Shown in pieces: positions 1 through 22,671 of a stretch of DNA of 64,000 bases. The notes below the pieces were generated by a model. It ran no database searches. It was not told where the DNA came from and saw only the letters and a program-made list of their open reading frames with translations. The stretch is from NCBI GenBank assembly GCA_038817885.1, contig JAWAZE010000001.1, forward strand, positions 8,941-72,940, given 5' to 3'. The stretch is from Candidatus Bathyarchaeia archaeon. GTDB lineage: Archaea; Thermoproteota; Bathyarchaeia; Bathyarchaeales; DTEX01. The first letter of the stretch is position 1. Every line of letters begins with the position of its first letter. The translations under genes and the position numbers were made by a program.

Positions 1-329
1 ATCCATAAGCAATAGGGCTATTTATAAAGCTCCTGAAGTAGCCTGTAGCCTTATAGCGCTCTTCCAAGGAGATCTTAGTAAGCTTGTTGAGCGGCCTGTG
101 GCTTTTGCAGCCATCCAATCCTTTTTATTCAATTTTCAACAGTCTTCACAATGCCAATTGGAGAGGCACTGAACCGTAAAGCATGAGGTTAGCAATATAT
201 TTGATGCAGATTTACTGCTCTTTTTCAATTAAATTAATGTAAATAAATATATACGATATTTATTAACATATATGTTATTTCAACTAAGTATTAATTCTTG
301 TTCACTACATATATATTCAGTGATGAGAT

Positions 330-2048
330 ATGAAAGCGCTTGAGATAAGTCCGTTAGAGGGAAAGAAGTTAAGAGTAATAATGGTTGAGAAGGAGTATAG
401 CGAGCCTTTCTGGATCACTGAGCCGATGTACGATAAATCAAAGAACTCTGTTCCATCAGCCTTCTCACCCTCAATCGCCTTTTGCGAGTTCATTGGAAGA
501 CTTATTAGTGAAGTTAAACCAGACTTCGCAACGGAGGAGCTAGGTAATCGTACATTGAAGGAGTTCACGGAGAATAATGCTTTATACAAGGTCTTTAAGG
601 AGAAGAGTGTTCCATTACTCCCTGTTGACATTGATGAGCGTGCAAAGGAAAGTTTAGTATCTCTGGTGGATGAGAAGAAACGGCTGCGTGACGAGGTGAT
701 CAAGGCCCTTGAGGTGATCTCTAATGAAAAAGGAAAAGAGCGCAGTTTCGAGGAAGAATTCTTAACAGCTTACTTGCAACATTTGCAGCAGGAGATTGAG
801 GAAGCTGAGCATGAAATAAAGTTCTCTATTAGGGAAAGATGGATAGCAATGGGGATCCTTGAAAATGCTAGAAAGATTGATAAGAGGGAGATCATGTGTA
901 TACATCTATCTAGCCCAGAACATGTGAATGGTCTCAAAAAGATTCTCGAGTCTGTTGATGTAGATGTAGAAACGATTAAGCCAGCGAAAAAAATAATTTT
1001 TGCAGAAAAAGTGCCTTCAAGCGACCTCAGGGAATTGTTAAGGTCGATGCAGATTCAGATAAAGCCTATAATTAGAAAGTCGACTGAAGAGGTTCCATAT
1101 ATACTATTCTTCTTAGATGCTGATGAGAAGGCCAGCCCCTTCGATATATGCATGGCTTATGATGCTGGCTTTAACGTTGTTGTTCCCTATGAAAATGTAT
1201 CTGCAAAGGAGACTAAGAAGATAGTTCAAGACGCTATCTTCTCAAGGGATCAAAGGGGGATTAAGCGGACGTGCTTCTTCATTGGAGGAAAAGATATGGA
1301 GAGGGCTGAGGATGTCTTTAAGGTTGTCCAAGACTCGATGTTCCCACCATTTAAGACGAGTATCATAATTGATCCAGCTGGAGCATATACTACCGCGGCC
1401 GCCATGGTTGCTAAGGTTGAAGAGGCGCTAGCTCGTTTAAACCTTGGAAATCTAAAGGATAAGAGGTGCGCGGTCTTCGGGACTGGCGCTGTGGGAAGAA
1501 CTGTTGCAATTCTATTGTCTAGGCTTGGATGCGATGTTGTAATAGTTAGCCCAAATCCGCAGCGTACGGACGGGGAGGAATACGTTGCAAATCTATCTAA
1601 TTTGCTCCGCACTAAATATGGCGTTGAAGTTAAGGGGGTCTTTGCCCCAACAAGAGAGAAGAAAATGGAGATTATTGAGAAGGTAGACGTGATCTTCTGC
1701 GCCGCCGGAGCTGGGATTCAGGTTATTGATAAAGGAATGTTAAGTGCGACGAAATTCATTAAGGTTATAGCAGACGTCAATGCGGTTCCACCTTTAGGCG
1801 TTGAGGGAATAAAGCTCGATGATGATATGAGGGAAATTGTTCCAGGGATCTTTACAATAGGTGCTTTGACAATAGGTCGACTGAAATATAAGTTGGAGCA
1901 GGAGATTTTGAGGGAAGCCCGGACTGCCGAGAAACCAACCATCTTCGAATACAACTATGCTTTCCAGCTAGCAAGAAAGATCTTAAGGGGCGACGTACTA
2001 TCTTCAAAGCTCTCAGTGACTCTAAGCTATCCCTCAAAAAAGAAATAA
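330..2048 (+). CDS. Fusion protein: divergent TraB/PrgY-like N-terminal domain (~aa 1-250) plus an NAD(P)-dependent methylene-tetrahydromethanopterin/folate dehydrogenase (MtdA-like) C-terminal half
   Basis: 572-aa ORF. Residues ~265-560 follow the MtdA layout: 'FFLDADEKASPFDICMAYDAGF', 'FFIGGKDMERAEDVF', 'IIDPAGAYTTAAAMVAKV', then a Rossmann GxGxxG 'AVFGTGAVGRTVAILLSRLGCDVVIV' and 'ADVNAVPPLGVEGI'. The N-terminal part ends in 'RERWIAMGILEN...IMCIHLSSPEHVNGLKKIL', which resembles the TraB 'ERDxYMA...GAGHxxG' motif. Matching is from memory only. Confidence 0.6.
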   Translation: MKALEISPLEGKKLRVIMVEKEYSEPFWITEPMYDKSKNSVPSAFSPSIAFCEFIGRLISEVKPDFATEELGNRTLKEFTENNALYKVFKEKSVPLLPVDIDERAKESLVSLVDEKKRLRDEVIKALEVISNEKGKERSFEEEFLTAYLQHLQQEIEEAEHEIKFSIRERWIAMGILENARKIDKREIMCIHLSSPEHVNGLKKILESVDVDVETIKPAKKIIFAEKVPSSDLRELLRSMQIQIKPIIRKSTEEVPYILFFLDADEKASPFDICMAYDAGFNVVVPYENVSAKETKKIVQDAIFSRDQRGIKRTCFFIGGKDMERAEDVFKVVQDSMFPPFKTSIIIDPAGAYTTAAAMVAKVEEALARLNLGNLKDKRCAVFGTGAVGRTVAILLSRLGCDVVIVSPNPQRTDGEEYVANLSNLLRTKYGVEVKGVFAPTREKKMEIIEKVDVIFCAAGAGIQVIDKGMLSATKFIKVIADVNAVPPLGVEGIKLDDDMREIVPGIFTIGALTIGRLKYKLEQEILREARTAEKPTIFEYNYAFQLARKILRGDVLSSKLSVTLSYPSKKK

Positions 2049-4233: not shown

Positions 4234-4506
4234 TTAGCCACCATCTATTAGGGGGATTATTGCAACTCTATCCCCGTCAGATAACCTGGCGTTAATTCCA
4301 CCAAGAAACTCTATGTTTTGACCATTAAGTACTATAATCGTCCCCGCCTTTGATACGATTCCCATTATTTTTTCGCCATATTTTTGGGCAGCCATCCATA
4401 GTAAGTCTCTGACAGCTGAGCCCTCAGGAAGATTAAATGTAACTTCTTTCGTCCCAAAAATTCCTCTTAAGTCTTCGTGTAAAAGCACTAGTTTAACCTC
4501 AATCAT
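4234..4506 (-). CDS. MoaD/ThiS-family beta-grasp protein with a C-terminal Gly-Gly
   Basis: 90 aa ending '...DGDRVAIIPLIDGG'. It lies immediately downstream of AOR with a 10-nt gap. Confidence 0.75.
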   Translation of the reverse strand: MIEVKLVLLHEDLRGIFGTKEVTFNLPEGSAVRDLLWMAAQKYGEKIMGIVSKAGTIIVLNGQNIEFLGGINARLSDGDRVAIIPLIDGG

Positions 4507-4516
4507 TTTGTTCCCC

Positions 4517-6376
4517 TTACCAGGCTATATGCTTAACGGCGAAATTTAAGCCCAATTCGAGGACTTTTTCCCTCCTCGGTCTACCCTCGTGGTCTAATCC
4601 CCTTTCTGCATAAAATTCGTTGAGCATAGGTTCCAGCTCAATGATCTGCCCCTTAGCCGCTCCCTCATTTAAGGGCTCCTCAAGGAACCTTTTAGGTAAT
4701 ATATCATCTTTTCGTCTCACGCCCATCCTTACGTTAAAGATTCTCTGAAGAATCCATATTCTCTCCCCAGCCCTTATTAAATCGTCCAATGTCATCTCCC
4801 ATCCGGTTACCGCTGTGTAAAGTCGAGGAAGTTCTCTCAACGGCACCCCACCGAAGAGATAAATGAACTTGCACAGCCCCAGGGCGTCCACTATGCGGCA
4901 TACATCCTGCATAACCTTAACTAAGTGGGCCTTTCCCTCAATTGTGAATCCGTTAACTTGCTTATCAAATCCTATGTCTGGAAGAAGGATTCCTCTGGCT
5001 GGAAGCATGGATAGTCCTCTTAGATGACAGGCCCCCCTCTCAGATACAGCGTACTGCAGTCCCATCTCTTTAAACCTATATGGACTGTGCATCGGGATCT
5101 CAAGTCCCTTAACTTGCATAGCGTACCTATCGGCCCCCCTACCTATCTTCTCGGCAGCCCTCATAGATCCCTCACCCAATATAGCGCCGATACCCTCCCT
5201 CCGACCTATAAGCTCAACCACCTTAATTATCGCGTCCGGGTCACCCCATCTAAGATCGATTCCTCCAGTATCATCTTTAGTTATTATGCCCCTCTCGTAG
5301 CATTCCATTGCAAAAGCTATTGTTGCGCCAGTAGATATTGTATCCAGCCCAAACCTGTTACATAAGTCATTTGCTTTCGCTATAGCCTCTAAATTATCGT
5401 TCATACAGAGAGACCCTAAAGCAGCTATAGTCTCATACTCCGGACCATAACCCTCAAGGGGGGCGTACGGTCCCTCACTTATCTTAATATATCTCCCACA
5501 AGCTATATGACATGCAAAGCAGGCTTTCTTACTTACTAAAATTGTCTCAGCCATCTTCGCACCTGATATTTTCTCAGCTCCTGGAAACCTGCCTTTCATC
5601 CAATTCTTTATTGGTAGATTTCCCATCTCCTCAAACGCCACAACACCCCTAGCGGTTCCGTAATCTGAGAGAGCTTTTAAACGCTCCCTTGTAATATTCA
5701 CTATCTCCTTCTTCAAGTCATTAAGAAGGTCTGGGTTAGCAACTTCTATATTTCTAGAGCCTAAAGTAGCTATAGCCTTCAAGTTCTTTGAGCCCATAAC
5801 AGCGCCTAGGCCGCATCGCCCCGCTGCCCTGCCATTATCGCTTATAATGGAGGATAATTTAACGAGCTTCTCGCCGGCCGGACCAATACATATAACAGCA
5901 GCCTTCTTCTCGTTTAAGTCGTTCTTAATGGCTTTGCAGGTTGTATATGTATCCATGCCCCAGTAACCACTTGCATCTATAATATCAATATTGCCATCAT
6001 GTATCCACAGGTAGACTGGCTTATCCGCTGCCCCATCAATTATAATCATATCGTACCCAGCGCGCTTAAGTTCGATTCCAGTATTAGCTGAGAAAACAGA
6101 CTCGCCCCAAATGTTTGTTAGAGGGGATCTTGATACAACAATGGACTTGCATGCCGTTGGAGCTGCGGAGCCAGTTAGAACTCCCGTTAAGAGGATCAGC
6201 TTATTTTCTGGGCTAAGGGGATCTATACTTGGATCTACTTCTTCAAGCATAATCTTAGAGGCGATACCCAAACAGCCAAGCAAATCCCTCGCCAGGGAGA
6301 AGTCTAAATCTTCTACGCGATATTTTTTGCTAGAAAGATTAACTTTCAGAACTTTACCAGCATATCCACCAACCAT
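4517..6376 (-). CDS. aor: Tungsten-containing aldehyde:ferredoxin oxidoreductase (AOR family)
   Basis: 619 aa. N-terminus 'GYAGKVLKVNLS'. [4Fe-4S] ligand motif 'CFACHIACGR' (CxxCxxxC). 'GLDTISTG' and 'ERGACHLRG' are typical of AOR-family enzymes. Confidence 0.93.
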   Translation of the reverse strand: MVGGYAGKVLKVNLSSKKYRVEDLDFSLARDLLGCLGIASKIMLEEVDPSIDPLSPENKLILLTGVLTGSAAPTACKSIVVSRSPLTNIWGESVFSANTGIELKRAGYDMIIIDGAADKPVYLWIHDGNIDIIDASGYWGMDTYTTCKAIKNDLNEKKAAVICIGPAGEKLVKLSSIISDNGRAAGRCGLGAVMGSKNLKAIATLGSRNIEVANPDLLNDLKKEIVNITRERLKALSDYGTARGVVAFEEMGNLPIKNWMKGRFPGAEKISGAKMAETILVSKKACFACHIACGRYIKISEGPYAPLEGYGPEYETIAALGSLCMNDNLEAIAKANDLCNRFGLDTISTGATIAFAMECYERGIITKDDTGGIDLRWGDPDAIIKVVELIGRREGIGAILGEGSMRAAEKIGRGADRYAMQVKGLEIPMHSPYRFKEMGLQYAVSERGACHLRGLSMLPARGILLPDIGFDKQVNGFTIEGKAHLVKVMQDVCRIVDALGLCKFIYLFGGVPLRELPRLYTAVTGWEMTLDDLIRAGERIWILQRIFNVRMGVRRKDDILPKRFLEEPLNEGAAKGQIIELEPMLNEFYAERGLDHEGRPRREKVLELGLNFAVKHIAW

Positions 6377-6517
6377 CTTCTCTCCTCTGGCAAATTTTTG
6401 TTTAATTTTATTTTATGGAGGGTTTATTTATTAAAATAGTTTTTCGTCATTAGAAAACAACATTTGGGAAAAAGAATAAGTATTAGTCTACTCACCAACG
6501 TGAATTATTTCTATTTG

Positions 6518-7591
6518 CTAGTATCTGCCATACTTTTTGACTAGCTCAATAACCCTCCTGTAATTTTGGAAGCTGACGTTTTTCGGTATAGAGTGATCAG
6601 AGTGATAGATGTATCCTCCATCCTCTTTAGCGATCGTTATCTTCCTCCTTATTTCCTCCTCTATCGGTCTTGGATCATCTAGGCTCATAAGTCTCGTGTC
6701 TATCCCGCCCATAAACGTAATTTTATCCCCATACCTCTCTTTTAGTTCCACTAGATCCATTCCAGCCTTAACCTCCAAAGGCTGTAGGCAGTCAATCCCC
6801 TCTTCAATAAAATATGGGATGAGATCCTTAACCCGCCCGCAGGAATGTAGAAAAACATACATCCCATGACTATGAAAGAACTGGCACAGTTCCTTAAAAA
6901 CTGGGTGGAGCTGCTCCTCAAAGTGTTTTGGTGAAAAGAAGAGACCGTTTCTGTAGCCTAAATCGCAGTAGAGGAATGCCCCATCAAATTTGAAGCCCCT
7001 CCGCATCATTCGCTCACACATATCCATGACGAGCTTGGCATCAGTCCAATATATGTCGATAACCCAATCCGGCTCCTTAATAATCGCCCTTAACAATCTT
7101 TCAGAAGCAACATATCTCTGCGCCCTATCATATCCCACCGTAGCACCATACATTATAAACCTGCCCCGACTATACTCACGGTGGAAAGATCTGAAACCCG
7201 AAACCCAATCAACCCTGTAGTCATCGGCGATGAGTCTAGGTTTAATAAGGGTCTCCCAGTCATCTTTAGTCTTACACGGGTAATCGATGATTAGGGGTGT
7301 TGTGGAATAATCCTTATAATTTTTTCTTACACCGCCATATTGATCTCTTTCAATAATATATTTCTCATCCTCATAGAGAACCTCAACAGGGAGACGTGGA
7401 CTCGTGTCCGCCTCAAAGATAGTGATCTCAAAGCCGAAATACTCATCTGGAGAAACCCCGGAAGGTAGCCCCTCTCTCCTCCAGCGGTCAATTGTTGCTT
7501 GCCAAATGCTATCATGGATCGGGACGCGATCCGCTTCATAGTGCTGTAGGATCCTTTTTATCCTCTCACGGGGCTTTAATTCACCCGACAT
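6518..7591 (-). CDS. Uroporphyrinogen-decarboxylase-fold (URO-D family) methyltransferase, MtaA/CmuA-like
   Basis: 357 aa with the URO-D/MtaA-type C-terminal half: 'VFLHSCGRVKDLIPYFIEEGIDCLQPLEVKAGMD', 'ITFMGGIDT'. It lies 2 nt downstream of a corrinoid protein gene. Confidence 0.75.
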   Translation of the reverse strand: MSGELKPRERIKRILQHYEADRVPIHDSIWQATIDRWRREGLPSGVSPDEYFGFEITIFEADTSPRLPVEVLYEDEKYIIERDQYGGVRKNYKDYSTTPLIIDYPCKTKDDWETLIKPRLIADDYRVDWVSGFRSFHREYSRGRFIMYGATVGYDRAQRYVASERLLRAIIKEPDWVIDIYWTDAKLVMDMCERMMRRGFKFDGAFLYCDLGYRNGLFFSPKHFEEQLHPVFKELCQFFHSHGMYVFLHSCGRVKDLIPYFIEEGIDCLQPLEVKAGMDLVELKERYGDKITFMGGIDTRLMSLDDPRPIEEEIRRKITIAKEDGGYIYHSDHSIPKNVSFQNYRRVIELVKKYGRY

Positions 7592-7593
7592 AT

Positions 7594-8262
7594 TTAATCA
7601 ACCCTAAACGCCCACGATTTACATATGTTTACGCCTTCAACAGCATCCTTTGCGGCGGCATCGGCACCAATCTTTTTTGCAAACTCCTCAGTTATTGGGG
7701 CGCCACCGACGATCACCTTAACCTTATCTCTTAACCCAGCTTCCTTAAGCGCTTTAATAACATTTCCCATCTCATCCATAGTGGTTGTTAGTAGTGCTGA
7801 CATGGCAACCACGTCTGGTTTATGTTCTTTAACAGCATCAACGAACCTTTCAGGAGGTACATCTACCCCTAGGTCTATCACCTCAAAGCCCGTTGCTCTT
7901 AATAGCGTCGCAACAATATTCTTGCCTATATCATGCAAGTCGCCCCTAACAGTTCCAATAACTACTTTACCAATCTTTCCGGTCTCATCGCTTTTTAGGT
8001 GGGGCTCGATGACCTTCATACCTTCCTTAACGATCTCGCCAGCCACAACAAGCTCGGCTAAGTAATATTCTTCCTTCTCATACTTTTCACCGACTATTTC
8101 TAAGCCTTTGGAAAAGCCCTTCATTATAATGTCGTAGGCGGAGATTCCTGCCTTAATGGCATCTATGCATAGTTTTTGAATGCTCTCAATGTCAAGGTTT
8201 ACGATAGCTTTCCTAATCTTATCTAAGATTTCCCCCCAGCTCATGAAATTTTCAATCACCAC
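7594..8262 (-). CDS. Methyltransferase-cognate corrinoid protein (B12-binding, MtaC/MtbC-like)
   Basis: B12-binding signature 'GDLHDIGKNIV' (DxHxxG), 'AMSALLTTT' (SxL) and 'VIVGGAP' (GG), preceded by the helical cap domain. Confidence 0.9.
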   Translation of the reverse strand: MVIENFMSWGEILDKIRKAIVNLDIESIQKLCIDAIKAGISAYDIIMKGFSKGLEIVGEKYEKEEYYLAELVVAGEIVKEGMKVIEPHLKSDETGKIGKVVIGTVRGDLHDIGKNIVATLLRATGFEVIDLGVDVPPERFVDAVKEHKPDVVAMSALLTTTMDEMGNVIKALKEAGLRDKVKVIVGGAPITEEFAKKIGADAAAKDAVEGVNICKSWAFRVD

Positions 8263-8291
8263 TCCTTTAATTCATCGCCTAAAAGTCCCCC

Positions 8292-9608
8292 TCATATTTT
8301 ATAAACTTCTCCTTTTTCCGGCAAAATTATCTCGCCGTCTAAGTCGCTTAAGAACTTACTGAATAACCTTGGATATTCGCCATGTATTGGGAAAATCTTT
8401 TTTGGTTTAATTATTTCTAGGGACTTTCTGAGATGTAGCGGTGTTATGTGCCCGGAGACATGAATATGATACTGTGGTAAACCATAATACTCCAGCCAGC
8501 TTATAAGCCTACTAAAATCTATTTCCATCTCCTCATCAAATGGTTCAGATGCTGACAATATATAGCAGCTTCCTGGAAGTGGATTGATTTCAATAAGCCA
8601 ATTTAGATTAAAGAAGGGCAAACACATTATTATCTCGCTTTGTCTCTTAGATATCTCTTGCGGACTTATAACCTCGCTGCAATCCATAATTTTCTGCTCC
8701 CACTGGAAATACTTTTTCTTTTCTTTTTGAAATACAAGGATATCTTTAAGTCCTGGGGCCTTTAGGCGGCTATCTGAACTCAGAACATGTAGAAGATATG
8801 CTTGTTTAGGCGTGACCACAAGCCGCCTGTTACTTCTTGATGCGATCTCAAAGAACGACCTTAGTCTATCAATATCAGCGTAGGCAAACTCCGTTAAGAC
8901 TAAACCATTAGTATTCCTGACCACCATGTTAAGCTTTTCCATGACCTCACGCTCTGAAGAAACTTCAACCTCAGTCATGTTTGTATGTTCACATATAACC
9001 GCCTCGGGCCTTTCTTTAGCTGAAGCAGTTAGGAAATCCTCCGTCAATTCTGGTCTCTGCCCATGCCTTCTAAAATCACCAGTATAAATGATTGGGCCGG
9101 AAGAAGTGTAAATTATAAAGCCATATGATCCTGGGACGGAGTGATCCACATGTATTGGCATAATTTCAATCGAGCCAACCCTTATTTTGTCTCCTGTGCG
9201 GAATTTCTTGAACGTTATTCCCCTAAGGTTAAACTCCACATTTGCTGGGCGCACTTCATTTAGGGCATTAAGTATAAGGGCGGTTGTTTCACCACAATAA
9301 ACTGGTATATCTCTTCTTAAGAATGATATGTGAGCTGAGTGATCCATGTGGGAGTGTGAGAGAAAGACTGCATCAACGTATCTCTCAGATTCATCAAAAT
9401 AATAGGCTCCCTTCAGGCTGGGTAACAACCCTACCTTAATTAGCTCAGAGCCACTTTTCGGCGAGAGAAAAGGTGTAGAATAAAATTTATCTCTTAAGGT
9501 GAAAGATGCGCCGAAATCGAAGAAGATCCTTGAATCATTATCATCCACTAAGATTTTATTACCACCAACCTCGTTTACGCCGCCATAAAAAGATATTTTA
9601 ACCCCCAA
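8292..9608 (-). CDS. Metallo-beta-lactamase/beta-CASP ribonuclease (archaeal RNase J-like)
   Basis: 'ISFYGGVNEVGGNKILV' and 'FLSHSHMDHSAH' (HxHxDH), ~440 aa. I moved the start to TTG 9608: a GGAGGAGG SD lies 8 nt upstream, 1 nt after the upstream gene's TAG. The ORF-track ATG at 9632 would overlap the upstream gene by 23 nt. Confidence 0.75.
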   Translation of the reverse strand: MGVKISFYGGVNEVGGNKILVDDNDSRIFFDFGASFTLRDKFYSTPFLSPKSGSELIKVGLLPSLKGAYYFDESERYVDAVFLSHSHMDHSAHISFLRRDIPVYCGETTALILNALNEVRPANVEFNLRGITFKKFRTGDKIRVGSIEIMPIHVDHSVPGSYGFIIYTSSGPIIYTGDFRRHGQRPELTEDFLTASAKERPEAVICEHTNMTEVEVSSEREVMEKLNMVVRNTNGLVLTEFAYADIDRLRSFFEIASRSNRRLVVTPKQAYLLHVLSSDSRLKAPGLKDILVFQKEKKKYFQWEQKIMDCSEVISPQEISKRQSEIIMCLPFFNLNWLIEINPLPGSCYILSASEPFDEEMEIDFSRLISWLEYYGLPQYHIHVSGHITPLHLRKSLEIIKPKKIFPIHGEYPRLFSKFLSDLDGEIILPEKGEVYKI

Positions 9609-11415: not shown

Positions 11416-12270
11416 ATGTATACTATGCATAGGTTTTATGCTGAAGCTGTTAAAACTGAATATTGGATGCCTGGAGAAAATTACTTGGAGAGGATAGCTA
11501 GGGCTGTTGAGGGGAGGGTTTCTGAGGGCGACATAATAATTATTTCCGAGAAGGCAATTTGTGTGGCGAAGAAATTGTTAATTGATGAAGAAAGCATTAA
11601 GCCTAGTTTTCTGGCATGTTTTCTAGCCCGATTTTGGATGAGGATTATTTGGGGATATTTTCTTGGAATCTTATGTCATTTAAAGAGCAAAAATATTATA
11701 CGTTTAAGAAACTATCCGCTTAAAGAAGGCGCGGCCCATAAAGAGGTTGCGTTAAAATATGCTGGGTTCCTTCACGCTCTAATGTGGGGTTCTGAGGGCG
11801 GTATAGACGGAAGTAACCTTCCCTACGCGTATGTCAGTCTCCCCCTAAAAAATGCTCAACAAGTTGCGGAGGAGATTCAAGAGTATTTAAAGAGCAGGCT
11901 TGGAAGAAAGTTAGCCGTTATGATCGTTGACACAGACAAAACATACTCTTTCAGAAATTTTCACTTCACACATCGGCCAGAACCATTAAAGGGAATCTAT
12001 ACCTTTCTCGGATTTATAGGGTATGTTATTGGTAGGTCTCTTAAACTTAGGCGTAGACCTACACCGCTGGCACTAGCTGGTGCGGTAATGAGTGTAGATT
12101 TAGCACTTGACATAGCTAATGTTGCCGAGAAAGTTAGGGGATACGGGGCTGGCCGCACAGTTTGGGATATGACTGAAAGGTTTCGTGTAAACTTAACTGG
12201 TGTGACATGGGATATGCTTAAGAAGATGGAGCATAAACCTATAGTAATAATTAGATATTTAAGAAAGTAA
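11416..12270 (+). CDS. CofE-like (F420-0:gamma-glutamyl ligase family) protein
   Basis: 'GDIIIISEKAICVAKK' and 'SEGGIDGSNLPY' resemble the CofE 'GDvlvvtsKivSKaEGr' and 'aGIDaSN' motifs. Weak, from memory. Confidence 0.45.
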   Translation: MYTMHRFYAEAVKTEYWMPGENYLERIARAVEGRVSEGDIIIISEKAICVAKKLLIDEESIKPSFLACFLARFWMRIIWGYFLGILCHLKSKNIIRLRNYPLKEGAAHKEVALKYAGFLHALMWGSEGGIDGSNLPYAYVSLPLKNAQQVAEEIQEYLKSRLGRKLAVMIVDTDKTYSFRNFHFTHRPEPLKGIYTFLGFIGYVIGRSLKLRRRPTPLALAGAVMSVDLALDIANVAEKVRGYGAGRTVWDMTERFRVNLTGVTWDMLKKMEHKPIVIIRYLRK

Positions 12271-20895: not shown

Positions 20896-22671
20896 TTAGA
20901 GGGATATTTTGTGCAGAATTTCCTCTGGCTTAAATTCCTCTTGGGATCTTATCGAAGCCTCTTCAACATATATCTGAATAGCATATCTCATGGAATCCCT
21001 ACTTATTGGTATAAAATCTTCTTTAGCGTTAAAGTACTCCATGAGTGATGCGGAGCATGCGAATCTTAAAGCTTTATCTTCGAGTCTTGCTGAGAACATA
21101 AGAGTATCATCTTTTATCTCGCTGAGTATGATCTCCCTGGCCTCGGTGATCAACTGATATGCATCCTCAGTTATCATTACTGACTTACATGGAAATTCAT
21201 TTTTAACGAGCGGGTGTTGCGTTTCAATTGCATAAATTAGGGTTAAGTGATCCCTTATCGCCTGCGCCATTCTCCCAATATTTAGTTTTCCAAGAAGGAC
21301 TTTCATCTGTCGTTCCGCTATCTCCATGAAGCGCTCCTTAGTTAAGCGGTGGAGTCTGCATAACATCCGATCCTCAATGGCCCTGAAATTTGGATCCTGG
21401 ATCGTTACATTATACCCCCTCTTACGAACCTCGACATTGTAATTTACGGTAAAGAAAGAGGTAAACTTGTATGGACCTATAACCTCCCGCTGGGTCTCAT
21501 ACTTTATTTCGCCCTGCTCCATGGCGATCTTAAGCGGCTCAACCATACCCTTATATCTGAAGAAATCATTAAACTCTGGAATTATGAAGTTGAACGTTCT
21601 CCCAGCGTAAGCTTGCCCAATCCTAATAAACCTAGCAGGCGTCATTCCCCCACAATAACGGTTTCTTCCAGGTATTCCATGTGCTGGCAATCCCATGCTC
21701 GGTTTCCCAAATACCATGTCTCTTGTCGCAAAACTTTTCCCTGTTCCAGGGTCACCGAATAGCGCCAGAGACCATCCTGTTCTCTTAACCATTTTTCCAC
21801 ATGGGTTAATTACTTCAGCGTTTGCCAATCCATACTGTTGAGTTAAGCTAAGTAAGCTATCAAAGTATAAGATTGGCCCAAAAATATCTTGAAGGTAGCT
21901 TGACAGCTTCAATATGTTGAAGGTTTTACCAAAATTTATCGCCTCTTCGAGTCTATTCTGAATTAGGTCAGTTAAATATGAGTTTAACTCCGAATCCATT
22001 TTCTCAAGGAGATTTCTTTCCTCATCTAATGAAACGGTTCCCCTCCTCTCCTCGGTTAGAGCTGCAGTTTGGATTTTAGGTTCTATTTGGAGCATCTTTT
22101 TTCCTTCACTTATCTCATTTTCAACTATTGGAAGCATCTCTCTTGGTATACTCCATTCTCTATATTTTTCGCCAATGTAAGACGTGGATATTATGCCTAA
22201 ATCTTCCAGATCGCTCAGCATTTCATAGGCCTGAGGTAGTTTAACGATCTCTTTAATAGTGTATGAGTCTATGATGCCGCCGCCCTTAACAATGGTCTTT
22301 AAGAAATTCATTCCAACTGAACCATACATTAATTTAAATCTGCGCAATCCATCACTAACAATCTTCCATGAACCATCGAGGAAGAGCTTTCCATTAATGA
22401 GCATGTAATATTTTCCCTTAAAGGTCGCCCAGTTTCTAGGCTCATATTTTTGGAATATCTGCTTTAGAACATCATCCGTTACTCTTGAAGATATCTCTGT
22501 GGAGACTTCATCTTCATCTATATCCCAGCAACAACTAAACCTTTCAAAATAAGGTATCTTTAACCATCTACCAATATCAAAGAGATGTCTTATTGTGTAA
22601 GCCTTCTTTAAGAGCTCCCTTCTTTCGGAGATTTTCTCCTGATGCTCTGAAATCAACAGCTTCCGCCCCAC
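20896..22671 (-). CDS. Orphan AAA+ ATPase, MCM/Lon(BrxL)-like core with an uncharacterised ~300-aa N-terminal region
   Basis: Walker A 'LFGDPGTGKSF'. Walker-B-position 'FNFIIPEFNDF' (compare MCM 'IDEFDK'; Asp replaced by Pro). 'LKIAMEQGEIKYE' (compare MCM 'EAMEQQTIS'). 'AIEDRMLCRL' (compare 'LLSRFDL'). No MCM OB/zinc N-domain is recognisable. Confidence 0.5.
   Translation of the reverse strand: MGRKLLISEHQEKISERRELLKKAYTIRHLFDIGRWLKIPYFERFSCCWDIDEDEVSTEISSRVTDDVLKQIFQKYEPRNWATFKGKYYMLINGKLFLDGSWKIVSDGLRRFKLMYGSVGMNFLKTIVKGGGIIDSYTIKEIVKLPQAYEMLSDLEDLGIISTSYIGEKYREWSIPREMLPIVENEISEGKKMLQIEPKIQTAALTEERRGTVSLDEERNLLEKMDSELNSYLTDLIQNRLEEAINFGKTFNILKLSSYLQDIFGPILYFDSLLSLTQQYGLANAEVINPCGKMVKRTGWSLALFGDPGTGKSFATRDMVFGKPSMGLPAHGIPGRNRYCGGMTPARFIRIGQAYAGRTFNFIIPEFNDFFRYKGMVEPLKIAMEQGEIKYETQREVIGPYKFTSFFTVNYNVEVRKRGYNVTIQDPNFRAIEDRMLCRLHRLTKERFMEIAERQMKVLLGKLNIGRMAQAIRDHLTLIYAIETQHPLVKNEFPCKSVMITEDAYQLITEAREIILSEIKDDTLMFSARLEDKALRFACSASLMEYFNAKEDFIPISRDSMRYAIQIYVEEASIRSQEEFKPEEILHKISL

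Follow-up and report, generated by a model that had tools for sequence, protein, structure and literature searches.

A long-form MtdA-type dehydrogenase with a remotely TraB/TIKI-like N-terminal domain in Bathyarchaeia and Asgard archaea

A 64,000-nucleotide (nt) stretch of contig JAWAZE010000001.1 from a Candidatus Bathyarchaeia archaeon, called the window, carries near its left end a gene for a 572-amino-acid (aa) protein that joins an MtdA-type dehydrogenase to an N-terminal domain without annotation. On balance, we read this gene as a long form, found in Bathyarchaeia and Asgard archaea, of MtdA, the NAD(P)-dependent methylene-tetrahydromethanopterin (methylene-H4MPT) dehydrogenase; in this form, an accessory module of TraB/TIKI fold, which would act in pairs and would not be a protease, precedes the dehydrogenase. 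This reading takes the observed domain identities, conservation, synteny, and paralog pairing as its base, and predicts from them the substrate, the cofactor, the dimerization, and the lack of hydrolase activity.

The gene is an uninterrupted open reading frame (ORF) on the forward strand (330..2048), with ATG at 330 and the stop codon at 2046-2048. A 100% identical protein from Bathyarchaeia metagenome-assembled genomes (P0001) bears the annotation NAD(P)-dependent methylene-H4MPT dehydrogenase; databases name the protein simply MtdA and leave its N-terminal half without annotation. Because the identical protein is present on seven contigs, and the same full-length architecture recurs in more than 120 protein clusters and in 155 species genomes, the N-terminal extension is not an artifact of gene calling or assembly. 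A previous reading of the window (the original prediction) had proposed an MtdA-like enzyme fused to a degenerate TraB/PrgY-like domain. The peptides that it quoted are all present in the protein: VEKEYS (aa 19-24), KPDFATEELG (aa 63-72), IDERAKESL (aa 101-109), RERWIAMGILEN (aa 168-179), and HLSSPEHVNGL (aa 192-202).

The MtdA-type C-terminal half

An Mpt_N domain followed by a Rossmann domain makes up a complete MtdA module in the C-terminal 315 aa. Pfam matches Mpt_N (PF09176) over its full length (profile positions 1-81 of 81) at aa 270-350, with an E value of 1.6e-29 and a score of 102 bits, the cut-off being 27. When the PDB was queried with phmmer, Methylobacterium extorquens MtdA (1lu9, 6tge, and 6tlk) was matched at E values of 1e-33 to 2.5e-33, with query residues 258-551 aligned end to end with residues 4/5-285/287 of the MtdA chain, and MtdA was the sole family with a significant match. 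The dinucleotide-binding motif GTGAVG is found at aa 384-389; G384, T385, G386, and G389 of this GxGxxG signature are invariant in 20 homologs, as is R412, and many motifs shared with MtdA are invariant across 20 to 33 homologs. The MtdA-like character claimed for this half is thus confirmed.

Another Rossmann family was considered for the C-terminal half, as its reassignment to shikimate dehydrogenase or glutamyl-tRNA reductase would have contradicted the original prediction. No such reassignment occurred: these families gave only generic, marginal matches at or below the cut-offs, restricted to the Rossmann domain, and the MtdA assignment therefore stands. The FolD-type THF_DHG_CYH domains gave no Pfam match at an E value of ≤1.

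MtdA of Methylobacterium (Methylorubrum) extorquens (1LU9, 1LUA, 6TGE, and 6TLK) shows the same two-domain layout of Mpt_N and GxGxxG Rossmann domain and shares with the query the motifs DTD..SPFD, YDxG, GG.DM, PF, TTAAA, and NAxPPxG. The query differs in its archaeal host, in its length, which is twice that of the M. extorquens enzyme, and in its cofactor loop past β2 (VSPNPQRTDGEEY versus CGRKLDK in MtdA), which also varies among lineages (VETW.. in Asgard archaea). In addition, the query family is in synteny with F420-dependent Mtd, whereas M. extorquens MtdA lies with bacterial methylotrophy genes. Identity to characterized MtdA is only ~30%. Stand-alone MtdA had been put at ~290 aa; the solved chains measure 287 to 303 aa, so the extension of the 572-aa query, estimated at ~255 aa and counted here as 257 aa, is real. 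This departure from the single-module length is an architectural difference that is compatible with a catalytic module.

Probable remote relationship of the N-terminal domain to TraB/TIKI

No Pfam or NCBIfam model matched the N-terminal ~222 aa. For the TraB/PrgY/GumN family (PF01963), there was no match for the query at an E value of ≤1 and none for 38 diverse members of the N-domain family at an E value of ≤10, where only scattered noise appeared (RdRP, glutaredoxin). A search of the PDB with the N-domain profile returned noise as well (FlaH, coiled coils), and hhalign against a single GumN-type sequence, Escherichia coli YbaP (a verified PF01963 member), gave a probability of 2%.

Profile comparison gives a suggestive signal. 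A TraB/PrgY profile was assembled from pCF10 PrgY, 19 Pfam-verified homologs, and YbaP; a tblastn search of plasmids with YbaP recovered the GumN branch only and was thus left out of profile building. With hhalign, the 38-sequence N-domain profile aligned with this profile over 55 columns (probability, 61%; P = 7.8e-5), pairing the pattern 'S..(helix)..PDFxTEELGxR' with the TraB pattern 'S.eSaeLV..PDsVciELDexR'. The N-terminal half of the domain alone reached a probability of 85% (P = 6e-6); these probabilities of 61 to 85% are suggestive but fall under the usual 95% confidence level. The same register was found separately in three subfamilies, namely the Bathyarchaeia-like (P = 9e-3), Asgard-fused (P = 6e-4), and Asgard-free (P = 0.037) sequences. 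Controls gave P values of 0.57 to 0.75 for reversed sequences and 0.2 to 0.3 for the MtdA half. The C-terminal half of the domain alone also had this register as its best match, at a nonsignificant P value of 0.025 to 0.23.

Extended over the whole domain, the hhalign alignment pairs conserved residues in order: E70 with TraB E45; R168, E169, and W171 with R191, D192, and Y194; and S195, H198, and G201 with G212, H215, and G218. The second GxxH motif accordingly reads S195-P-E-H198..G201, with Ser in place of its Gly. The TraB GTaH motif falls on VEKE(Y), where no subgroup carries a His, so that the first TraB His has been lost, as had been proposed for VEKEYS; E22 within this stretch is invariant in Bathyarchaeia. 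Judged by topology in the models, D100 would be the equivalent of D120 in the TraB motif 'LADRD', a pair that hhalign does not align.

A template-free AlphaFold2 model of the N-domain (predicted local distance difference test [pLDDT] score of 81; predicted template-modeling score of 0.75) has five strands interspersed with helices, and a long hairpin separates strands 3 and 4. The coiled-coil stretch noted in the original prediction corresponds to this predicted helical hairpin (aa 103-132 and 140-181). In a model of a genuine TraB protein (pLDDT, 83), the elements follow one another in this same order, and the conserved residues occupy equivalent topological places. Among 350,542 PDB chains compared with the N-domain model using Foldseek, the best was 8b6h_DQ, although the match is not significant (E value, 0.04; probability, 0.77; template-modeling [TM] score, 0.30). 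The genuine TraB model has the same chain as its rank-1 match, together with 8bqs_DQ and 7w5z_E (E value of ~6e-6), while ChaN is matched only at an E value of 0.04. Chain 8b6h_DQ was named 'TraB family protein' by its depositors and matches the TraB profile at an E value of 2.6e-7.

This chain is a TraB subunit of mitochondrial complex IV of Tetrahymena thermophila (7W5Z chain E; 8B6H chain DQ). Its first motif is degenerate (GTTN), its second His motif is kept, and it belongs to a redox enzyme complex. It differs from the N-domain in being a eukaryotic, mitochondrial, stand-alone protein of 385 aa, the structural match is weak, and the N-domain profile found no match to it at the sequence level in the PDB.

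The TIKI superfamily, which includes Tiki, erythromycin esterases, ChaN, and RRSP besides TraB/PrgY/GumN, is defined by a core of five parallel β-strands, a set of two His and two Glu residues, and a conserved Arg (PMC6254334). The N-domain has a five-stranded sheet core flanked by helices in the strand/helix order of TraB, structural similarity to TIKI members, a Glu at the end of β2, an Arg in the helix before β4, and a His and a Gly after β4; it does not have the first GTxH His, and it lies under every Pfam threshold. It also departs from TraB in having far fewer helices between β2 and β3, a long two-helix hairpin in place of the TraB helical region, and no C-terminal membrane domain, and in being fused to a cytosolic dehydrogenase. 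Since the sequence-profile signal and the template-free model independently point to the same small family, remote homology of the N-domain to TraB/TIKI is very likely, which would make the N-terminal half a new and strongly divergent branch of the superfamily. The TraB-like assignment in the original prediction is supported by the hhalign matches (P values of 6e-6 to 8e-5), the matching order of secondary structure, and the shared rank-1 Foldseek chain.

With phmmer, 1.84 billion representative proteins were searched exhaustively, and only 76 clusters with the N-domain were identified. They comprise fused proteins of ~550 to 580 aa, fragments of such proteins, one protein with the reverse domain order (P0147), and free-standing proteins of 190 to 265 aa. 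Across this whole family no column is invariant, W171 being kept in at least 90% of it. Within Bathyarchaeia, E22, E69, E70, R74, D100, E103, R168, W171, E178, H192, and E197 are invariant. The MtdA-fused forms compared, which are 22 to 46% identical to the query N-domain, nearly all retain E70, G72, R74, D100, R168, and W171, and all retain G201. H198 predominates in each of the fused subgroups (Bathyarchaeia-like, Asgard-like, and reversed order), and the R168 position is occupied by Arg or Lys across fused and most free forms. According to the position table, the free Asgard paralogs have Asp in place of E70 and have lost R74, H198, and G201. This is how residues should be distributed if the fused copy holds a functional pocket and its partner copy is degenerate.

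Distribution, paralogs, and proposed role

Bathyarchaeia are among the most abundant archaea in sediments, eukaryotes have their closest known relatives in the Asgard archaea, and metabolic models of both groups rest on the H4MPT Wood-Ljungdahl pathway. Species-representative genomes were scanned for the gene, which gave 155 relatives; at least 155 Bathyarchaeia species genomes carry the fusion. Eighty loci were kept, all from Bathyarchaeia, of which 78 cover essentially the full length; the exceptions are a fragment at a contig end and a 5'-truncated match. The long MtdA fusion belongs to the core genes of Bathyarchaeia, which share it with Asgard archaea. This bears on the novelty suggested earlier for the fusion: the literature search found no description of the extra domain, the fusion, the free paralogs, or the Mtd-MtdA tandem, but the architecture itself is not rare.

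In 58 of 74 Bathyarchaeia species loci, the immediate upstream neighbor, co-oriented with the fusion gene, is F420-dependent Mtd (PF01993), and Ftr is found upstream in 21 of 55. As this synteny with Mtd and Ftr is kept in relatives, it supports a C1 role of the gene. The window's own subclade (loci L010 to L016 included) does not share the H4MPT gene association: the upstream region is rearranged, Mtd is not adjacent, and the tail of an Mtd gene, looked for at the left edge of the window, was not found. Where most Bathyarchaeia have Mtd, the upstream region carries a pair of short ORFs that are PhoU fragments (42 and 59 aa), along with several tiny ORFs (window, 1-329; L004, 9332-9611, immediately left of window position 1). 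This looks like a local rearrangement or a decayed duplication that removed the adjacency.

On the downstream side, a gene with AbrB and PhoU domains converges on the long MtdA gene within ≤600 nt in 71 of 73 Bathyarchaeia loci. The protein is an AbrB/MazE-like plus PhoU protein of ~335 aa, with further copies in L002 (9721-10737), L006 (9779-10795), L091 (3110-4135), and L094 (3750-4826); in L091 it adjoins the reversed-order fusion and in L094 a Helarchaeota operon. Because the synteny is kept so widely across phyla, it suggests that the PhoU/AbrB protein is a dedicated regulator or partner of long MtdA.

In Asgard archaea (Promethearchaeota/Loki-, Hel-, Hod-, and Heimdallarchaeota), the N-domain also occurs as a free paralog of ~210 aa (63 clusters), which is labeled 'hypothetical' and has no Pfam match. 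In five of five Asgard loci it lies directly upstream of a long MtdA gene for 558 to 565 aa, overlapping or abutting it (by an overlap of 13 nt in the Lokiarchaeal locus L007, where long MtdA spans 6630-8306). Over both domains, identity between the Asgard long MtdA and the query is 34%. Divergent neighbors of this operon are HdrA-like/FlpD(MvhD), HdrBC-like (CCG), and FrhB-like genes (L007, 1-3076; L008, 350-5200; L009, 1-5050; L095, 1-4401), and L095 also carries small and large subunits of an Mvh-type [NiFe]-hydrogenase. The Asgard long-MtdA operon may be linked to electron-bifurcating complexes.

A fusion in the reversed order, MtdA followed by the N-domain (496 aa), is found in L091 (GCA_030596445.1; region 4384-8731) and is followed by a free N-domain paralog of 183 aa (hhalign probability, 99.6%). 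Next in order are an NfnAB/SudAB-like pair (DHODB_Fe-S_bind; Fer4_20 plus Pyr_redox_2) and a URO-D methyltransferase-like gene. An apparent second N-domain copy in 10 Bathyarchaeia loci proved to be an effect of position binning, every match lying inside the one fused domain. Since a free N-domain of 255 aa (P0139; L092, 1638-2405) stands without MtdA nearby, the family is not strictly tied to MtdA; this protein keeps the His motif as HLCSPNH, and its neighbors are radical S-adenosylmethionine, helix-turn-helix, and V4R genes.

In the role that we propose, the MtdA module would catalyze the reversible hydride transfer from methylene-H4MPT to NAD(P)+, yielding methenyl-H4MPT+. With the gene directly behind Mtd in most Bathyarchaeia, Mtd and long MtdA would work on the same C1 intermediate with different cofactors, and the pair could connect the H4MPT branch of the Wood-Ljungdahl pathway with both the F420 pool and the NAD(P) pool. 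Cycling between methylene and methenyl forms, analogous to the Hmd-Mtd cycle, would in principle allow F420H2:NAD(P)+ exchange. In Altiarchaeales, a homolog of NADP-dependent methylene-H4MPT dehydrogenase is reported to serve in a variant of the Wood-Ljungdahl pathway, its gene being described as bacterial-like and horizontally acquired (PMC4975002); compared by its description only, this MtdA-type enzyme is mentioned with no extra domain.

The N-domain, as a divergent TraB/TIKI fold that lacks the first catalytic His and keeps E70, R168, and H198, is preferably read as a pocket-bearing accessory module and not a protease. It would pair with itself in Bathyarchaeia and with the degenerate free paralog in Asgard archaea and the reversed-fusion lineage, the contact being made through the helical hairpin, and would so organize or regulate the dehydrogenase oligomer. 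The hairpin is a candidate dimerization element because fused and free N-domain copies recur as pairs. A noncatalytic accessory role is favored by the loss of the first His, by the existence of degenerate TIKI-fold subunits, and by the presence of Mch in Bathyarchaeia.

An active TIKI-type hydrolase in the N-domain, which would make the protein bifunctional (converting methenyl-H4MPT to formyl-H4MPT or acting on another C1-pterin, ester, or amide), is unlikely. In such an enzyme, water would be activated by the E70-H198 pair, with R168 as the substrate-binding residue. All three residues are kept in nearly all fused forms and lost in free paralogs, and they occupy the positions found to be essential in VvRRSP, where the second His and second Glu form the essential pair and the conserved Arg is required as well (PMC6254334). 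The two domains are moreover fused in both orders (P0147), as is typical of functionally coupled activities. Against this, the first His, which belongs to the catalytic His-Glu pair of the Ere-type mechanism, is gone, and TIKI-fold structural subunits or domains free of catalytic motifs exist, such as PMT C1/C2 (PMC6254334) and the Tetrahymena complex IV TraB protein. No pathway gap needs filling either: Bathyarchaeia are reported to carry complete H4MPT Wood-Ljungdahl gene sets, for which Hou et al. 2023 (PMC10321748) list Mtd and a canonical Mch and, in the passages searched, do not discuss an MtdA-like gene. This weakens a role of the N-domain as replacement for a missing Mch. The narrower version, in which a single-His TIKI hydrolase acts on the C1-pterin product of its partner as methenyl-H4MPT cyclohydrolase or formyl-H4MPT hydrolase, is distinctly improbable. 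If true, it would describe a FolD-like bifunctional NAD(P)-dependent C1 enzyme made from two folds never before seen together, which in Asgard archaea would heterodimerize with an inactive paralog and which might also supply adjacent Hdr/Mvh- or Nfn-type electron-bifurcating complexes. FolD, the methylene-tetrahydrofolate (methylene-H4F) dehydrogenase/methenyl-H4F cyclohydrolase, likewise combines C1-pterin hydride transfer with a hydrolytic step in one polypeptide, yet this is a functional analogy only, as FolD performs both reactions in one fold (THF_DHG_CYH), whereas the query has a separate hydrolase-superfamily domain fused to it.

It is rather improbable that the N-domain is unrelated to TraB/TIKI and represents a lineage-specific Rossmann-like α/β domain with a coiled coil, its resemblance being convergent or due to chance and its role limited to oligomerization or to docking, for example, to Mtd, Hdr-like, or Nfn-like complexes. 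Several observations do weigh against the homology that we favor, namely the lack of Pfam TraB matches in all 38 members even at the loosest threshold, the Foldseek TM score of only 0.30, hhalign probabilities that do not exceed 95%, and the absence of a family-wide invariant column. The HdrA/FlpD/FrhB, Mvh, and Nfn-like neighbors in Asgard archaea and L091 would also offer docking partners. However, profiles and the template-free model arrive at one family independently, the best of all PDB chains is a TraB family protein, three invariant TraB motifs fall, in the right order, on the residues that are best conserved in the N-domain, and the reversed-sequence controls stay at background.

It is very improbable that the C-terminal half is instead an MtdA-fold enzyme recruited to a different substrate or cofactor (solely methylene-H4F, or some other pterin) and that the N-domain confers the new specificity. 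The low identity to characterized MtdA, the divergent and lineage-variable β2 cofactor loop, and the Mtd already present in the genomes speak for it, but the whole MtdA chain is matched with Mpt_N fully conserved, the synteny with the H4MPT-specific Mtd and Ftr is tight, and both H4MPT and H4F are used by MtdA itself (Vorholt et al. 1998, cited in PMC9012536).

Read as a dehydrogenase with a pairing accessory module, long MtdA is a core gene in the H4MPT pathway neighborhood that is common in nature and unrecognized in annotation, and with it the TIKI superfamily gains a cytosolic member fused to a metabolic enzyme. Its conserved TIKI/TraB-like Glu-His-Arg module, the degenerate free paralogs, and the neighboring Mtd, PhoU/AbrB, and Asgard Hdr/Mvh-like genes give rise to testable hypotheses on how C1 oxidation or reduction is coupled to NAD(P), F420, and ferredoxin pools in uncultured archaea.

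Sequence features and other genes of the window

The features of the gene, its flanks, and the free Asgard paralogs are collected in Table 1. Within the linker, L237, S239, K245, and P246 are invariant in the homolog alignments, and the pLDDT is low in the domain-only model.

Table 1. Positions of the long MtdA gene, its parts, and associated features (window positions unless a locus is named)
Feature	Position	Strand	Basis
Long MtdA gene: TIKI/TraB-like N-domain, linker, MtdA-type dehydrogenase, and stop	330..2048	+	ORF list; >120 full-length clusters
Shine-Dalgarno-like GTGATGAG, putative ribosome-binding site, 3 nt 5' of ATG	319..326	+	Read from sequence
N-terminal domain (aa 1-222), five-stranded α/β core, remotely TraB/TIKI-like	330..995	+	AlphaFold2, hhalign, Foldseek
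VEKEYSEPF (aa 19-27), end of β1, TraB GTxH position with His replaced	384..410	+	Alignments, extended hhalign, topology
KPDFATEELGNR (aa 63-74), β2, E70 paired with TraB invariant E45	516..551	+	hhalign core match, position table
VDIDERA (aa 99-105), just past β3	624..644	+	Topology comparison, conservation
Long helical hairpin (aa 103-132 and 140-181) between β3 and β4	636..872	+	DSSP on AlphaFold2 model
IRERWIAMGILENA (aa 167-180), R168/E169/W171 paired with TraB R191/D192/Y194 ('ERDxY')	828..869	+	hhalign, extended and C-half
CIHLSSPEHVNGL (aa 190-202), β4 and next loop, second GxxH motif position	897..935	+	hhalign
Conserved linker including LLRSMQIQIKPIIRK (aa 223-257)	996..1100	+	Homolog alignments
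MtdA substrate-binding domain Mpt_N (PF09176; aa 258-350)	1101..1379	+	Pfam; MtdA residues 5-97 aligned
Rossmann NAD(P)-binding domain (aa 351-530)	1380..1919	+	Alignment to solved MtdA; generic Rossmann Pfam matches
GTGAVG (aa 384-389)	1479-1496	+	Rossmann dinucleotide-binding motif
β2 loop VVIVSPNPQRTDGEEY of Rossmann domain	1536-1583	+	Alignment to solved MtdA
C-terminal helical tail (aa 531-572)	1920..2045	+	MtdA C-terminus aligned over first ~20 residues, to query 551
AbrB(MazE-like)+PhoU gene, convergent, 11 nt from stop codon	2060..3067	-	Pfam PhoU and MazE_antitoxin
Asgard free N-domain paralog, L007	6001-6642		
Asgard free N-domain paralog, L008	6001-6642		
Asgard free N-domain paralog, L009	6001-6630		
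Asgard free N-domain paralog, L094	5001-5645		
Asgard free N-domain paralog, L095	5001-5636		

Further along the window, on the reverse strand, a ThiS/MoaD-like protein of 90 aa is encoded immediately downstream of, and co-oriented with, a tungsten-type aldehyde:ferredoxin oxidoreductase (AOR; AFOR_N plus AFOR_C; 4234-6376). A corrinoid protein of 222 aa (B12-binding_2 plus B12-binding) is likewise encoded on the reverse strand, with a URO-D-family methyltransferase (MtaA/MtbA-like, 357 aa) directly downstream (6518-8262). The original prediction had seen AOR and the corrinoid/methyltransferase pair as fitting a C1-oxidation role. AOR and the corrinoid/URO-D pair are each found in only 2 of 49 loci, those of the window's nearest relatives, and so are peculiar to the lineage; we rejected them as functional context. 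The reverse strand also holds a 591-aa ORF (20896-22671) that has no Pfam match at an E value of ≤1e-5.

F420-related genes recur near the locus. The window encodes an F420-0:gamma-glutamyl ligase-like gene on the forward strand (11416-12270), and in relatives CofD and an FrhB/FdhB-like gene lie near Mtd and long MtdA (L002, 3712-5723). This recurrence is consistent with F420 use in these organisms.

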